64,000 nucleotides of DNA from a virus: the IMG/VR virus record IMGVR_UViG_3300021368_000007, positions 6,346-70,345 of that record; one strand, given 5' to 3'. Positions 2,056 to 34,772 of this stretch are shown here, one piece after another. Each line of letters starts with the position of its first letter. Position 1 is the stretch's first letter. The translations under genes and the position numbers were made by a program. The notes beneath the pieces are model-generated. The model did no database searches, was not told where the DNA came from, and saw only the letters and a list, made by a program, of their open reading frames with translations.

Positions 2056-2218
2056 ACTCTTTGTTTTCCATGTCATCGATCTCACGACGGAGTTCTTTGA
2101 TGTAATCAGACAAGGATTCTACTTTCTTTTCGAGGTGAATGTTGCGATCTTGAAGATCTTTAACAAGATCTTTTACCTCTTCGGTCAGGGCATCAGCTGC
2201 CTCTTGATTGTGTGCCAT
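2045..2218 (-). CDS. small coiled-coil protein (57 aa)
   Basis: Translated by hand: MAHNQEAADALTEEVKDLVKDLQDRNIHLEKKVESLSDYIKELRREIDDMENKEYDV. Fills the gap between neighbouring genes. Confidence 0.6.
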   Translation of the reverse strand: MAHNQEAADALTEEVKDLVKDLQDRNIHLEKKVESLSDYIKELRREIDDMENKEYDV

Positions 2219-2232
2219 AGTAAAACACTGTG

Positions 2233-2484
2233 TTAGAATGCTGCTTTATCTAGTTGATTAAGAGTTTCAACTGCTTCGTCGGCGTTAGTTTGTAATGCTT
2301 GTTGTGTGAGATCGATGACAGGAGCGCCACCATTCCCAAAACCATCACCTCTAGTCATGTCATGTTTGATCTTATAAAGATCACGCAAACGACGCTTGAG
2401 TCGTCTCAACTCTTCATCATTATACAGGTAATCCTGCTTGAGAGCTTCTTTTACGTATTTAATTTCTTTTTGAGGTGACCACAT
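2233..2484 (-). CDS. cyanophage-type hypothetical protein
   Basis: MWSPQKEIKYVKEALKQDYLYNDEEL...GFG. Starts 1 nt after the upstream stop. Confidence 0.65.
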   Translation of the reverse strand: MWSPQKEIKYVKEALKQDYLYNDEELRRLKRRLRDLYKIKHDMTRGDGFGNGGAPVIDLTQQALQTNADEAVETLNQLDKAAF

Positions 2485-32200: not shown

Positions 32201-33154
32201 CTTGACTGCCTGATCACCATCCATGTCACAAGTGAACGACAGAGCACCTTCATTAAGGAAGACTCTATCATTAACAGCGATGCTATGTGGATTTGCAAAT
32301 GTAATTGTGGTCAGACCATTTGCAGGATCATATGTTGCATCAGTTGGGGTATAAGGAGTTCTAGTTCCTACCCAATCAGTGCCAGCATCATTGAAATAGT
32401 TGCTAATATACTTTCTAGTGTACTTGTTACCACCACCTTGCTTAACGTCAAGAGAAAGTGCATCAATCAAGAAAGTGATGTCACGAACACAACTACCACT
32501 ATTATATCCAGGTGGTAGAGGTGAAGGAGGATTGACCGCATCCATGTGGTCAAACGCATCCTGAGCAATCAGACTCTTGTTTCTTTGAATCAGATTGTAA
32601 CCATCATTAAATCTAGACCAAGGACCAGTTGCAGCATCACCAGGATAAACAAAGTCAGGATGTTGTACAGAGATTTCAGCAGCAGACCTATCAATAATCT
32701 CGTCTCTATTCTTCTGGATCAGACGATATGCGTCCTTATAGCGAGACCATGCCCCTGTTTGTGGGTCTCCAGGATAGTAGAAATCAGGATGTTCGACGGA
32801 TACTTGTGCTACAGCACGATCAATAACCTCTTGGCGGTTAGCACGTAGGAGGTTAGATGCATCATAATAACGTGCTTCTACAGCAGTTTCTGTTACCAGA
32901 CCAGGGCGGTTATCAATATAGTGATTACCAGGCATCAGCATGATGCTGAACTGGTCAAACCTGTCATTATTTGCTCCAGGTAGATAAGAATACCTAGAAA
33001 CCTCAATAAATGCCCTTTGAATTGTCTTAAAAGGACGTAAAGGCGAGTTACCTCTATTGTTTAGTTCATCACTCGCATTAAAGTCGTCTGGTGATACATA
33101 GAGGTATTTTCCAGTCTTACTTGAATACAGGTTATCAAGTCTTGTTAAAGGCAT
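20204..33154 (-). CDS. giant virion structural protein (4316 aa), tail-fibre-like
   Basis: N-terminus YLYVSP...GNSPLRPFKTIQRA typical of cyanomyovirus giant structural proteins, internal C-x-RD helical repeats, and a late promoter upstream. Confidence 0.85.
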   Translation of the reverse strand: MPLTRLDNLYSSKTGKYLYVSPDDFNASDELNNRGNSPLRPFKTIQRAFIEVSRYSYLPGANNDRFDQFSIMLMPGNHYIDNRPGLVTETAVEARYYDASNLLRANRQEVIDRAVAQVSVEHPDFYYPGDPQTGAWSRYKDAYRLIQKNRDEIIDRSAAEISVQHPDFVYPGDAATGPWSRFNDGYNLIQRNKSLIAQDAFDHMDAVNPPSPLPPGYNSGSCVRDITFLIDALSLDVKQGGGNKYTRKYISNYFNDAGTDWVGTRTPYTPTDATYDPANGLTTITFANPHSIAVNDRVFLNEGALSFTCDMDGDQAVKAYPRVGVDPGAVKGFSVTATTANTITFNAGPSGPNKYFQPSAVDYNPSTGDMVVTVGQHGLGVGRGVVLEDNSFTFECDLDNRATQHTYPRPGVDPYAGQSIAIAAVGSTSHTVTDAPYDAASGVVTLTIANHGFSNGDYIKVADNSLSYTCVLDGDTETKSYPRPGVDYPSGRWMEIQNVTTNTFEINVGPSEYTGAHTFVSATANGVERQDGTFTINVGTSSDTSTHYFIGATAQAIKHEPQTTHAFVSALDNSVIHDGTTGLRGEETSSLTAFSKAVELMKLAITNNFASTSSPGSEYTDNTVTPGEAVYGDGNGTVSNTDPTACTDIQNMIDTLYAIVDSIFDNSDLAANNGTFLLSNVLPAETTSTILPAGEIKCKRDIGQFIDAISLDVHEAGGNVYTRKLAQNYFDDTGNNWVANGLQGETAESLTAFNFAIAEMKKAVTNQLYFKDITITPGDAIYGNSNNPQENLQSGNPAACADVQSAIDTLGAIIITSVTDENLSQLPDETTSTLVSAGHAKCKRDSGFIVDGLIDDLATDGNANTITNAKAYFDRFGNPIANGVLGEEAESITAFNGIAYWAKRAVTNRLFAKDLTISPGPAVAGANTPVIPYTGSGNIETCQDVQQTIDTLINILTSVIEVGNLDDIADIKVTGVLPSFNYNRALEEWQDNSIVDLANPDNVLYKFNAATGGCIVPRGCSLIGYDLRRTVVRPLYVPDPADTTQERTSIFNLTGGCYLWQFTIKDGDLSAQSPLYDATAGVGKVYNKKGSTQLAIPEYSHHKICIMTYADRSDLDNYYEKVGKAFQQFQPTIDDGGLEALVQENRIVGPLSDSRTIESIKIEDQTTFTATANSTDTLTNVSDTSKLNIGAEIQSSASGIVVNPNTRIESISGNTVTLNQAISGSGAVAFTAQFGYTNITVTTKIDHGYFEGQYVAIINSGLSDEINGTWKVTKIDQVNPKVFEYEVYNNTAASLGLVSGQTYFSGEVGGVSTNAVVLAEIDSVESASPYVFNCSIRSTWGQCGMWADGSKATGFKSMVVAQYTGVSLQKDDRAFIRYDRLTNTWNQASLTDAFATIPYHTKGDAYWKDDWRNFHIRASDDSFIQCVSVFAVGFFDHFLMESGGDMSITNSNSNFGNTSLHSVGFKGFSFNQDKGGYVTDIIPPGIINPSTTIINQWYTFNVPASKDRANHTRLYLAGDGIENPDDRPASSINGYRLGAKSGEEIAVDLARYPSEPAGPIEFKSKLEPSGFKAWTVGIETLTPSSASVDNYAQDAANRIEDNKALIQNEGYQYIIAKYPELLNNTNIVIGKCERDIGYFVDAVVNDLRLGGNINSIQAAEGYYIQGQLSYIPNELNETLDTFDYVKNLMIAAMRNWDYLIRDCSITPGSAIVNVGDTSGLVIGMRVEEYAPSDFTNGRLNAGATAITTNIPVNTFIKRIISDTQIEMGIPGAKLTTGATRPAIGTGTTSAYLHFDLENGAWSSITPTSDDTITQDNRVDGNGDPLPECSNIATTIEGYFEQIFLVLNSGYSVLGGTEVDASNAITDNARFIAAEAVYRIANDPAYAGTSLGQGLLASTGETIQDACVDDVENVLKEIAYNVRYGGNNRVYAAAELYISSASVAGEEAESAAAFNMARDLAIQAMRQETITVQGDHGLTQVIDSQVIPEYDANGNLVTPPCADVAQTITTLTALITSGIQNQPLGAITMPTFASVTRVEPNSNLEGLSARATLFTLATGSFAGNPNPHDLETGTAVRLVPRARPGTDPDKRVIRLPDGFKTNTKYYVIAPGRNLYPENFAQSAAAITVTEAAGTNFATANATRATAAGLYRSLVAQPKVDTDGTALASGTGLRFNIRVNADGSLTLGDTSANLDAIANGGSRYQNGDIVVITDGQLGGTGAPDIEIEITATSQAEYPGVFDGTEVNKLMLATSPENAAAGIYMYSPETDSVDPDVEISIEQYVLDGRYDLHKYKSNVVGASEIETSVAHIFDVPSANTTPQKVFVRLATDIAGSTLPQLSGSASAISTQTEYFVRYVSNKRVTLHTSAADAESGDRALTFVSGTGVNFYLYANKRESPLRFDAEYSATGNNTGLWYLNVKDESNTGGAAYNRYSILSRFHGGVELANDFQTKTDPTLDSRYLRVEDEREKEDRVYRLRYVVPNYLETVRDPLNGFVIKTRTDDKRRLVPQRVLLKPIPGNPNQVASFYNPANAGEQIGLNKSELIADQIRTIDPSVVDLLPEQQNLYDPYLAPKVIEFDSKIAATIQSARKFTPAGTTDTFLEVTLFDHTIVNQSVKNEIFTVVRCNFLQGGFFTANATQSNDSNKITWETVGGGNIQGEAYLQAYINDLETAQAVLVLKGAVGELAFDPSKQVLFKQGDVQIELIEVPNSFGDQLEYLDKSKRENYLYRVEGSNVYTIAPGDVITDDTGLNSYYVATIEDQGNFDDCFYIFDIDTLQERIPNQQDGIYYLTCLRGNISPFPTGSGVGENFRNFKFSQPISQLYPINYKNDPLWFQVDGTTGVRDTSILDVPATSSAADNYVHGLVTVNDAKGSETREMVSDMIRNGFLNRYTYTGDNVIQAQEGNATSGSEDRLIPISGDSEFPTERKLYVELRRPSIARSGNHTFEYLGFGPGNYSTGFPLRQEVVLTDKQDFYAQAKREDGGIVFYTGLNSNGDLYIGNKKVNAITGEETFLESAALLDSEDDDEDIGTLVTTFDSPVTFNSTITVAGKSSLNGPVEINVEASEGDALTVFSNIAANEDQTLFSGSWRDQAEGNIKISGNKIKSAVFILNARPKPLAQYGQSYSFRTHIAGGEPSNIVPWNDPNTVFYPAQNIDFGSGNAPEGGDIVFKGSSVGNSGSLGWILANSFTSIENRIFRITADGTTTLTFEYAATFNNGNSNVFDDSQIRITNFSNTALIGTWEVIDSTRTDAGVTFQIAIDDTVTSGTIYTDADWSGGDILVSSKQWKETGVIGAETLRTYTEERGDYKLGVNTIARAGHNAVLTGNVDEFTEPRATLDVVGTAFVSGKTLTSVDSGTGDITNRWEDNNLNSDQREALTGADLANQGFIPQDNAFLVGGDSNDLDERATLRVTTSDEPSGTRGATYQTGGRVGINTTLGLTAESDLDRNLVVDGDGRITGNFLIQDDISVDGGDINTTASTFNLINQNANIVNFASQAQLFDAFSNTTNDQTLTIGSNADFQTIRIGQNSARTIFSVHPLSTNAFVDIATVQDDANNQSEVYIGGAWANADSKVTLGSAQALIAGNLEIGSKVAAGTGEARLFSQVRRVRLFDNDQNTQVEAFTKSNNLTFASLGGTTTIRNSLKVQASATVDSNIVLSGGTTAGIIEIVRGRFSTPISLHNLGSLDTPNIDFYKYNSTGRVIDTEGNRLWGGSQDLAGGGRISDFDNVQSPDPSNLRVAGSYAFRFATGGSGQGAAFDVNVAFDGTVTIEIQSTGTGYADNQTLTIADSQVGGGGAPDITLDINGVTDSSDVYILPITTPSVNDFDIGDLILLDRGNAASPDEYSPLGGTAVTGLRNQAQSEIMRIVGLDNVTNANDTDGFRISVVRAQEGTQEGTNHPDGCVIAKLDKNASASYLTGKDVGTVNGSPTTPDGILDEPRAGIDGTSGNVRIGLAEFGGILTTNDLIRIDQAEICGIADVISTDVQSLIVTDGGDPAVTKFKVESTTGNTVLSGDLGTGQGYTKFTVAGATGNTNIAGTTTIENTLTLNGSTIAATEYFTITNGGPSYENDGVTVAVPLRTTFQVDTANGNLTMNGGNINIFGTDGTTPRLTFNNSSGDFTTYGAFSALGTGLSSFGGPVTMAGDLTVNGGDLVVNQAGDEIFAIDDDGSINMGGITNYFSPSGATKWQVINTSVFTATSNISYFVDVSGTSLIRLPTNPQMGDMIRIIDISGNLSYNISLVIRAASLQRIQGSLSNTGSTILGSLASGNLSQHDGGELVVQTPNAAFGLVYAGTVDSDGGGGVNPNRAGWYLMDV

Positions 33155-33188
33155 AACTACCCGAGTCCGTCTGTGCTTTTCCTGAGTT

Positions 33189-33196
33189 TATTTATA
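33189..33196 (-). promoter_or_regulatory. T4-type late promoter
   Basis: Perfect TATAAATA about 35 nt upstream of the giant gene. Confidence 0.8.
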
Positions 33197-33203
33197 CTCC
33201 GAA

Positions 33204-33285
33204 TGTCGGTAAGAGGACTTGAACCTCCACGTCATAAGACACTGGAACCTAAACCCAGCGCGTCTACCAATTCCGCCATACCGAC
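33204..33285 (-). tRNA. trnL: tRNA-Leu (TAG)
   Basis: GTCGGTATGGCGGAATTGGTAGACGCG-CTGGG-TT TAG GT-TCCAG, long variable arm, GGTTCAAGTCC T-arm. Confidence 0.95.
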
Positions 33286-33288
33286 ATA

Positions 33289-33360
33289 CTCCCAAGGCAG
33301 GATTTGAACCTGCGACCGAGTGATTAACAGTCACCAGCTCTGCCACTGAGCTACTTGGGA
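33289..33360 (-). tRNA. trnN: tRNA-Asn (GTT)
   Basis: TCCCAAGTAGCTCAGTGGCAGAGC-GGTGA-CT GTT AA-TCACT...GGTTCAAATCC cloverleaf. Confidence 0.95.
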
Positions 33361-33361
33361 A

Positions 33362-33479
33362 TGGAGGAGGTTCTTAGGATGCTAGTAAACCAGAAGAGTA
33401 GCTACTCTCCCCAAACGCCCAACCAAGCAGGTTGCAAGCAATTTGCTCGGGGTATTACTAATAACTTCATTGAACCTCC
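33362..33479 (-). ncRNA. putative structured ncRNA with acceptor-like stem and encoded 3' CCA
   Basis: 5' GGAGGTTC pairs with GAACCTCC-T-CCA at the 3' end, and there are several internal stems. It sits between tRNA genes. Confidence 0.55.
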
Positions 33480-33562
33480 TTTTCACTACTCCCTGCTATA
33501 AGAGGGATTCTAGTGTTGGGGCGCTTCCGCGTAAGGGAAGATCTTTTGTTTGTACTCCCCAA

Positions 33563-33635
33563 TGGAGAATAGGAGACTCGAACTCCTGACAGCCTGCTTG
33601 CAAAGCAGGTGCTCTACCAACTGAGCTAATTCCCC
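33563..33635 (-). tRNA. trnA: tRNA-Ala (TGC)
   Basis: GGGGAATTAGCTCAGTTGGTAGAGCA-CCTGC-TT TGC AA-GCAGG...GTTCGAGTC, with the G3:U70 pair. Confidence 0.95.
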
Positions 33636-33637
33636 AG

Positions 33638-33709
33638 AGCCCCTGACAAGATTTGAACTTGCGACCTGAGCTTTACAAAAGCCCTGCTCTACCACTGAGC
33701 TACGGGGGC
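33638..33709 (-). tRNA. trnT: tRNA-Thr (TGT)
   Basis: GCCCCCGTAGCTCAGTGGTAGAGCA-GGGCT-TT TGT AA-AGCTC...GTTCAAATC, with one C6:A67 acceptor-stem mismatch. Confidence 0.9.
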
Positions 33710-34254
33710 GGGGTTTCAAAAGAGTAATTGCAAGAAAGAGTTTTTCTTGTTTTATCACTCTTATGAACGTTAACTCCATGTAGAATTGTGCTAGGGAAGA
33801 AGATAATATCTCCAGGACTTACATTGGGAACCCAAGTAGACTTGAAGTTAAAGTTGTTTCTCCATCCAGGTTTCAAGGAGTTGTTATATCGATCAAAGAA
33901 AAAGAATTCACCAAAGTCTTCTTCAACATGTGGGAAGAAAACTGACGCAAAGTCAACTTCTATATGATCGTGAACTTCTTGATACGAACCTTTCTCGTAG
34001 CAATTAATCCATGGATCATGGAATTTGTAACCAAAAGACTTTCCAAGTTCTTCTCCAAACTGACAAACAGATGGTTCTATTAACTTAAAAGTCTCTTGCC
34101 ACGGACAATGGATTGTTTTTACCTGACATCCTCTTGCCCAATCAAACTGAGTATAATCCTCAGTTTTATTCAGAACATACTCAGTAAGTTCTTTAGCATT
34201 AGGAGCAGGAAAAACAGAACACCATTGATTGTAAGGAAACAGATCAGTGATCAT
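33700..34254 (-). CDS. 2OG-Fe(II) oxygenase (TIGR02466-like)
   Basis: WINCYEKGSYQEVHDH...PGDIIFFPSTILHGV...RKTLSCN. Confidence 0.85.
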   Translation of the reverse strand: MITDLFPYNQWCSVFPAPNAKELTEYVLNKTEDYTQFDWARGCQVKTIHCPWQETFKLIEPSVCQFGEELGKSFGYKFHDPWINCYEKGSYQEVHDHIEVDFASVFFPHVEEDFGEFFFFDRYNNSLKPGWRNNFNFKSTWVPNVSPGDIIFFPSTILHGVNVHKSDKTRKTLSCNYSFETPPP

Positions 34255-34772
34255 ACTTTTTTAAATAAGAAACACCCATGCTGTGAACCCCACAATTGTT
34301 GTTTGGACTCGGGGTGGAACCCTTTGTCCTCTACATTATACCACCCATCGCCCAAGAACGCAAGGTTTTCAAGATAGGTTTCTTGAGTTCCCTGCATGAC
34401 GATGCAGTTGCATCCTGGTTCGATGCGACCAGCGTAGTGCCCATCCTTGGACTCAAATATTGTATCGCATCCGACGTTGTGTGTCAAGGGTTTTTTCAGA
34501 AGAAGATCTAAGTTCTGAAACCCTAGGTGAGCAGTCTTATCAGCGATGTAATAACTGCTCACGCGAATCTTACCATCTTCTTCTTTGATGTTAAGAAGAA
34601 ACTGACGATAAGGTTTCTTTAGTTTATTAAAGTATGCTTGCTCACCATAAAACCATCCATCCTCCACCTTGCGGTGTTGAACTACGATATAAGCATAACG
34701 AGAGGGATAAGTGAATGCTTGAATTTTGTTATTAAACGTTCCTTCAAACCAATCACTAAATTGATCAATCAT
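34251..34772 (-). CDS. cpeT: phycobiliprotein lyase CpeT/CpcT family
   Basis: FEGTFNNKIQA...FYGEQAY...PYRQ...DKGF...QLWGS motifs. Confidence 0.9.
   Translation of the reverse strand: MIDQFSDWFEGTFNNKIQAFTYPSRYAYIVVQHRKVEDGWFYGEQAYFNKLKKPYRQFLLNIKEEDGKIRVSSYYIADKTAHLGFQNLDLLLKKPLTHNVGCDTIFESKDGHYAGRIEPGCNCIVMQGTQETYLENLAFLGDGWYNVEDKGFHPESKQQLWGSQHGCFLFKKV

Follow-up and report, generated by a model that had tools for sequence, protein, structure and literature searches.

The window analysed here, a 64,000-nt stretch of an IMG/VR record that totals 70,345 bases, is part of a T4-like cyanomyovirus whose nearest named relatives are the Synechococcus phages Sf-CH11 and Sf-CH1a (95% identity across the tRNA region). 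Its minus strand carries a tRNA cluster with the transcription order Thr, Ala, a 200-nt non-tRNA stretch, Asn and Leu (Table 1). Upstream of the cluster, Pfam identified a CpeT gene and three 2OG-Fe(II) oxygenase-like genes, the nearest of which adjoins the cluster; downstream lies the gene for a 4316-aa tail protein, with its start at 33154. None of the four window tRNAs has an encoded CCA tail, as read from the sequence and in agreement with an earlier note on this DNA; for tRNA-Ala the discriminator A is 33563 and the CCA is likewise not encoded.

Two observations concern the flanks of the cluster. The 184-aa protein encoded upstream at 33700-34254 on the minus strand matched 2OG-FeII_Oxy_5 (PF13759, E 8e-10), and its counterpart in Sf-CH11 carries the annotation 'DNA endonuclease V', which is probably a misannotation. 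The sequence TATAAATA, which we take to be a T4-type late-promoter motif, is present on the minus strand at 33189-33196, just past tRNA-Leu and before the tail protein gene. A promoter and terminator scan of 32900-34400 gave no signal above chance on the tRNA strand.

Table 1. Features of the tRNA cluster in the window and of RNA modules and a small ORF found within tRNA clusters at related loci (L numbers, with positions in each locus).
Feature	Source	Position	Strand	Basis
tRNA-Thr (UGU), first in cluster	window	33637..33709	-	ARAGORN; Rfam RF00005, 64.6 bits
tRNA-Ala (UGC)	window	33563..33636 (33636-33562 by ARAGORN)	-	ARAGORN; Rfam, 71.6 bits
Hairpin H1: outer UUGGGG/CCCCAA, inner CUUCC/GGAAG, conserved internal loop	window	33516..33562	-	sequence, fold
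Hairpin H2: CACUA...UAGUG, inner CCCU/AGGG	window	33484..33515	-	sequence, fold
Element E, stem-closed structured RNA, 118 nt + A at 33480	window	33362..33480	-	fold, covariance model R1
Clamp 5' strand, 9 bp, AGGAGGUUC	window	33472..33480	-	fold, pair counts
Interior of element E, 80-nt three-way junction: stem P2, then three hairpins	window	33382..33461 (element positions 19-98)	-	MFE
Clamp 3' strand, 9 bp, GAACCUCCU	window	33365..33373	-	fold, pair counts
Encoded CCA, followed by U 33361 and tRNA-Asn	window	33362..33364	-	sequence; also in Sf-CH11
tRNA-Asn (GUU)	window	33288..33361 (Rfam limits 33289-33360)	-	ARAGORN, Rfam
tRNA-Leu (UAG), last in cluster	window	33203..33286	-	ARAGORN, Rfam
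H1 homologues	related loci	L003 1994-2039; L005 3694-3742; L009 2328-2372; L019 1698-1742; L029 1698-1744; L032 1087-1135; L007 about 2214-2252		
Multi-hairpin module	related loci	L001 3475-3601; L005 3816-3943; L011 1506-1634; L012 1604-1730; L046 1054-1182; L053 1528-1653; L066 1373-1497		
cyano_tmRNA (RF01851)	related loci	L055 1346-1720; L065 1809-2099; L078 1360-1735; L081 1788-2079		Rfam, 119-155 bits
manA RNA (RF01745)	related loci	L065 2178-2376; L081 2158-2354		Rfam, 124-135 bits
abiF RNA (RF03085)	related loci	L030 1374-1410; L031 1944-1980; L048 1665-1701		Rfam, 51-56 bits
Conserved ORF of about 50 codons	related loci	L023 1474-1716; L031 2068-2311; L033 2065-2309; L034 1908-2148; L051 2074-2311; L052 2028-2209		

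The 200-nt spacer between tRNA-Ala and tRNA-Asn folds as three separate units, namely the hairpins H1 and H2 and a larger structured RNA referred to here as element E. On the minus strand, 33479-33362 reads 5'-GGAGGUUC ... GAACCUCC-U-CCA-3', and a single U separates the CCA from tRNA-Asn, which begins at 33360 according to its Rfam limits. This bears out the earlier description of an 8-nt 5' run that pairs perfectly near the 3' end, is followed by U-CCA and ends 1 nt before tRNA-Asn. The same description called the stem acceptor-like. The perfect helix and the CCA are indeed present, but U 33365, which would be the discriminator, is base-paired to the A at 33480, so that the terminal helix is a clamp of 9 bp and the CCA alone is unpaired. 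All the interior stems listed earlier could be recovered, except that the minimum free energy (MFE) structure prefers a hairpin at element positions 31-36/40-45 over the proposed CCGAGC/GUUUGG pairing. We also agree that the element contains neither a D-arm nor a T-loop.

The MFE of element E was -40.2 kcal/mol, compared with -30.4 +/- 3.3 for shuffled sequences (z -2.98), and only 2 of 200 shuffles folded equally well; the energy of the model structure was -39.5 kcal/mol. A covariance model of the element, R1, scored 148.5 bits in the window and 147.5 bits in Sf-CH11. Element E is a real RNA-level element. The contigs of RNA run X15 contained tRNA parts only and did not cover 33370-33545, and contigs cannot show the ends of an RNA.

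The combination of a stem and a CCA proves nothing by itself, because perfect stems of at least 8 bp that enclose 40-140 nt and are followed by (N)CCA occurred 16 times in the window on both strands together, and block shuffles of the sequence yielded 6.5 +/- 2.7 such matches. From these counts, about 0.01 would be expected per 200-nt spacer. Related loci supplied 67 other distinct gaps between tRNA genes; in none of these did (N)CCA follow a perfect stem of 8 or more bp, and one had a 7-bp stem in this arrangement. It is the position of the motif, rather than the motif itself, that is unusual.

Element E was compared with known RNA families using ARAGORN and Rfam 15, and no match was obtained under strict or relaxed settings, which supports the earlier view of a non-tRNA RNA of no catalogued family inside the tRNA cluster. 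ARAGORN at its default settings called no tRNA or tmRNA on the element, nor did it call anything there at thresholds of 70-80%, with introns allowed or in mitochondrial mode. At 60% with introns, its sole call was a tRNA-Ser, interrupted by an intron of 111 nt, on the strand opposite to element E. Rfam at gathering scores gave nothing, and at E values up to 10 there was no tRNA-clan match on 33362-33479. Thus, neither ARAGORN nor the Rfam tRNA model (RF00005) found a cloverleaf, intact or degenerate, in the element. The tmRNA families (the RF00023 clan, RF01851 and RF04321) were rejected on the same grounds, with no match in the tmRNA mode of ARAGORN or in Rfam; these tools do detect cyano_tmRNA at related loci. 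Two further candidates, GHRLOS (E 9.2) and EBER1 (E 0.5, mostly over tRNA-Asn and tRNA-Leu), were at chance level.

A Y-RNA-like identity, as proposed in the earlier note, was not supported. The sole match to YrlA (RF02553) had an E value of 0.076 and was located on tRNA-Thr and tRNA-Ala, and Pfam detected no Ro/TROVE domain in ten stretches, nine of them ORFs in the neighbourhood and the tenth the N-terminal 500 aa of the tail protein. An acceptor-like terminal helix is common to element E, the YrlA and Y RNA-like molecules and the tRNA-like structures. Unlike these, element E has no Rfam match and no T-loop module; the unpaired discriminator and the conserved 3' CCA that characterise tRNA-like structures are also lacking, the former being paired and the latter varying among relatives.

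Searching 50,697 phage records with element E by blastn returned two real matches, Sf-CH11 and Sf-CH1a, and one chance match of 29 nt. In both phages the element is unannotated and 95.8% identical to that of the window. The carriers of this long form are therefore the window, these two phages and contigs of three metagenome runs (X6, X10 and X11). For the examination of more distant relatives, 79 related loci were gathered via the conserved N-terminus of the tail protein, and a shorter positional homologue of element E was found in three of them (L007, L008 and L010). Its order is H1, H2, a 63-nt unit and AACAA, followed by a tRNA-Asn allele of the window type. Thus AACAA replaces the CCA in the short form (L007 and L142), and the CCA is kept in Sf-CH11.

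The two forms share a common frame, which consists of a 9-bp clamp (AGGAGG plus 3 nt on the 5' side, 3 nt plus CCUCCU on the 3' side) and the loop strands RAUNAAG (5') and YCCUAA (3'). The six AGGAGG/CCUCCU pairs of the clamp are conserved between them. Their interiors differ: the long form has the 80-nt three-way junction, and the short form, which also folds better than shuffles (z -2.9 and -3.1), has a hairpin of about 26 nt.

Across four distinct sequences, all 36 of the 36 clamp cells were paired, with two compensatory pairs (U-A to A-U and C-G to U-A) and two one-sided changes to G-U; this covariation rests on essentially one divergence, because the sequences represent effectively two lineages. 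When the partner strand was slid by 1-3 columns, pairing fell to 38-64%, and 13 of 500 shuffle trials reached the observed score. Of the BLASTN search and the covariation analysis suggested in the earlier note, the former thus found the long form in two phage records and the latter showed that the clamp covaries with the short form.

Further searches did not enlarge the group. Blastn of the short form against the 50,697 phage records gave matches to hairpin H1 and two chance matches only, and an exact 18-mer of element E had no match in IMG/VR. Patterns of the clamp frame with gaps of 30-60, 60-80, 80-110 and 110-140 returned 27, 21, 31 and 24 stretches in IMG/VR, of which only two L007-type contigs were left when an extended stem and a tRNA close by were required; one filtering round, with 25 matches, covered newly fetched loci only. 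A pattern combining H2 with the clamp found three stretches in IMG/VR, every one of the short form, and seven in metagenome contigs, of which three were of the short form and four were due to chance. Covariance model R1, applied to 74 sources (447 kb), matched only the window and L001, the locus of Sf-CH11. We conclude that element E represents a new small family of non-tRNA structured RNAs in the tRNA operons of T4-like phages.

The natural variation within the long form could be followed in Sf-CH11 and in the contigs of runs X6, X10 and X11, which come from three studies and each span the element. Together they display eight variant sites. Four of these lie in helices of the model structure and all four keep the pairing (U19.G98 to C-G, G71.U86 to A-U, G73-C84 to G.U and G4-C111 to G.U), while the remaining four, which include all three transversions, are unpaired. 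Keeping the pairing in four of four cases by chance has a probability of about 0.09 if transitions only are considered and 0.001 if any change is allowed, and these substitutions appear to give modest support to the fold. The interior of the long form is supported by such pair-preserving single changes, not by covariation. The large internal loop was treated as unpaired because the weak pairs that the MFE structure places there are disrupted by variants at positions 12, 16 and 101. The G-U wobbles and the changes from G-C to G-U fit the tRNA-sense strand alone.

The content of the Ala-Asn spacer varies by phage: some have nothing there, and others have only H1, a module of 127-129 nt, manA RNA or a protein-coding gene. 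In L005, where the neighbouring gene is 85% and the N-terminus of the tail protein 96% identical to those of the window, the spacer has only 49 nt and consists of H1. Likewise, in one X10 contig a 40-nt spacer of the H1 type joins tRNA-Asn to tRNA-Ala. Since near relatives vary in having or missing it, element E together with H2 is an accessory unit.

The tRNA-Asn gene next to the element is itself variable. By eye, without an alignment, element E adjoins different alleles in the window (33288-33361) and in Sf-CH11 (L001 3401-3473); the window allele resembles that of the short-form contigs, and the Sf-CH11 allele resembles that of L005, which has no element. As two alleles abut the same element, a recombination joint can be placed at its 3' edge, and the pattern implies that the cluster is a mosaic with joints at module edges.

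Hairpin H1 is a separate module, as it is found without element E in related phages. Its homologues with covarying stems are present in L003, L005, L007, L009, L017, L019, L022, L029 and L032. The internal loop of H1 is nearly invariant (AGUACAAAAGAUC ... GCG) and both stems covary. The hairpin recurs after tRNA-Thr or tRNA-Ala, with a loose regular expression detecting it in 9 of 79 loci; it has no Rfam match, and on the opposite strand its inner hairpin with a T-run scores as terminator-like. Hairpin H2 occurs only alongside element E, and its inner stem covaries in L007 and L142 (CUCU/AGAG).

Several other modules were seen in the related clusters. A multi-hairpin module of 125-129 nt with covarying stems was detected by regular expression in 7 of 79 loci, in Asn-Leu, Thr-Ala and Ala-Asn spacers, and gave no Rfam match at gathering scores in L001, L005 and L011. 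The Rfam scan at gathering scores, which covered 20 related cyanophage loci, found cyano_tmRNA in four, abiF RNA in three and manA RNA in two of the clusters. The cyano_tmRNA lies inside the tRNA clusters in a permuted two-piece form (regular expression, 15 of 79 loci), and in L055-type loci a tRNA-Tyr gene (1431-1513) is placed between its acceptor piece and its coding piece. The manA RNA of L065 and L081 occupies the Ala-Asn spacer with tRNA genes on both sides, which is not a 5' UTR location, and the abiF RNA is likewise found between tRNAs. In several cyanophages, the spacer preceding tRNA-Asn contains a conserved small ORF of about 50 codons with a hairpin before it.

Element E has the features of the RNA cassettes found between the tRNA genes of cyanophages, that is, a fold on the tRNA strand, gain or loss as a whole and variation that preserves the structure. 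Its position, strand, fold, clamp covariation and presence/absence polymorphism, as well as the lack of a match to a known family, are observations. On this basis, we consider it somewhat better than an even chance that element E is a self-folding cassette co-transcribed with the tRNAs, cut free by tRNA maturation and protected by its clamp. The element would be part of the minus-strand tRNA transcript and would fold independently, with the 9-bp clamp AGGAGGNNN/NNNCCUCCU closing around the internal loop and the three-way junction.

The enzymes that trim the adjoining tRNAs could then release it by a cut after tRNA-Ala and by RNase P cleavage where tRNA-Asn begins, the latter leaving ...CCUCCUCCA(U) on the element; cyanobacteria use RNase Z with tRNA genes that lack CCA. 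The product would measure about 120 nt, or about 200 nt if H1 and H2 stayed attached. As 3' exonucleases stall at clamped ends with a short overhang, element E, with its clamp and an overhang of 3-4 nt, is expected to withstand them and to remain as a small stable RNA. The encoded CCA is probably an incidental quirk of the window and Sf-CH11 lineage. The released RNA may act in trans, as an accessory and dispensable factor such as a protein-binding decoy. We consider action in trans most likely given that other cassettes in such spacers, tmRNA and abiF RNA among them, are independent RNA genes.

The serious rival to this reading, although we regard it as clearly the less probable, is that element E works solely in cis as a spacer, or is neutral filler; it would only prevent misfolding of the tRNA precursors or space the processing sites, and the excised RNA would have no function and might decay. 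It stays serious because close relatives manage without the element; their existence shows that the element is dispensable, and neutral filler would fit this too. The wholesale exchange of the interior across lineages, with only the clamp and loop frame persisting, and the widely differing contents of the Ala-Asn spacer among phages are in keeping with it. So is the search for a trans target, in which the complement of the single-stranded 9-mer, with at most one mismatch, had 5 matches in the window compared with 4.9 expected. However, a three-way junction of 80 nt exceeds the needs of an insulator, and the substitutions in the element respect its fold. The element is also 95.8% identical in Sf-CH11 while the adjoining tRNA-Asn alleles differ (by eye), and spacers of this kind otherwise hold cassettes that are genuine RNA genes.

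It is improbable that element E mimics the acceptor end of a tRNA with a functional CCA, serving as a decoy for a tRNA-handling factor such as RNase P, the CCA-adding enzyme, a synthetase or a host toxin directed against the 3' ends of tRNAs. A mimic or decoy was proposed in the earlier note, and the perfect terminal helix of 8-9 bp followed by CCA and lying flush with a tRNA gene, the retention of the CCA in Sf-CH11 and the absence of such an end from the 67 other gaps, with so few expected per spacer, speak for it. Nevertheless, the short homologue keeps the clamp with AACAA in place of the CCA, and Sf-CH11, at 4% divergence, is too close for a test of CCA conservation. The would-be discriminator is base-paired, the third pair of the helix is A-U rather than G3:U70, and there is no D-arm or T-loop. 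The failure of ARAGORN to call a tRNA on the strand of the element down to 60%, the lack of a tRNA-clan match in Rfam and the 16 occurrences of the stem-(N)CCA motif in the window also argue against a mimic. Moreover, a 3'-CCA is described in a passage of PMC4264200 as detrimental to cyanobacterial RNase P, the activity of which it lowers.

Slightly less probable again is a cassette at the DNA level, in which the 9-bp inverted ends are the terminal repeats of a small insert that is mobile or prone to recombination, and the folding of the RNA is incidental. The inverted repeats at its ends, the presence/absence polymorphism among close relatives and the coincidence of module boundaries with recombination joints, as at the two tRNA-Asn alleles, would suit such an insert. 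Against it, the element is present in a single copy in the 70,345-base record, the scans of IMG/VR and metagenome contigs gave no further copies, and no target-site duplication was seen in the sequence at its boundaries. No copy was found in 401 genomes of a picocyanobacterial host family, where BLAST of the spacer with element E gave only chance-level matches of 19-33 nt in five; in genome contigs searched for a host origin of the element, a 19-mer had five chance matches, one of them in a Prochlorococcus contig with unrelated flanks. The G-U pairs and the changes from G-C to G-U point to selection on the RNA of one strand.

A more speculative reading, to which we assign a little less weight still, regards the cyanophage tRNA array as a counter-defence RNA island and element E as a CCA-tailed minihelix that would act as a decoy for a host enzyme or toxin directed at tRNA 3' ends. 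It draws on the spare tRNAs and on the tmRNA and the antitoxin-like abiF RNA of the relatives; candidate toxins are those of the nucleotidyltransferase type or those that cleave the acceptor stem. If this were true, the presence or absence of element E among close relatives would track the defence repertoires of their hosts.

Finally, it is very improbable that the element encodes a 22-residue peptide (33470-33402, minus strand) whose translation is gated by the fold: the Shine-Dalgarno-like AAGGAGGU in the clamp is followed after 4 nt by ATG and a 22-codon frame, and T4 is reported, in a passage of PMC3014915, to sequester ribosome-binding sites in helices. However, the ATG is changed to ATA in a natural X10 variant (33468 C>T, plus strand), and in the short form a start codon at a suitable spacing and a shared frame are both missing. 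Of the three changes that Sf-CH11 has within the frame, two alter the residue, and AGGAGG, which seldom precedes real genes in the window, is not the usual ribosome-binding site there.

Returning to the RNA cassette that we favour, its closest parallels in setting are RNA C and RNA D of phage T4 (species 1 and 2), which their annotation describes as stable processed species. Like element E (118 nt), rnaC (139 nt) and rnaD (119 nt) lie among the tRNA genes of a T4-like phage without being tRNAs; they have the same orientation as these genes and come within a few nucleotides of one of them. There is no homology, however, as model R1 had no match in the T4 region (L150) at E values up to 10. In addition, rnaC has a tRNA-like T-arm sequence, which element E has not, rnaD, unlike element E, folds no better than shuffles (z -0.83), and the folds of the T4 RNAs differ from that of element E. 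The T4 RNAs thus resemble element E in context only. Their roles were still unexplained according to the relevant passage of a 2010 review (PMC3014915).

The cyano_tmRNA, abiF RNA and manA RNA share with element E the niche of the tRNA clusters of T4-like cyanophages, and they behave as self-contained cassettes that are gained, lost and shuffled among relatives. Element E differs from them in having no match to their models at gathering scores or at E values up to 10, and it has a far narrower distribution.

Taken alone, element E is a narrow, lineage-specific case among the RNAs of cyanophage tRNA arrays. It is nevertheless carried by a cultured phage with a cultured host, Sf-CH11, which has close relatives without it. 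The tRNA arrays of cyanophages hold uncatalogued folded RNAs beside tmRNA, abiF RNA and manA RNA, and each new cassette with defined boundaries and presence/absence variants offers a further case for testing what such RNAs do.
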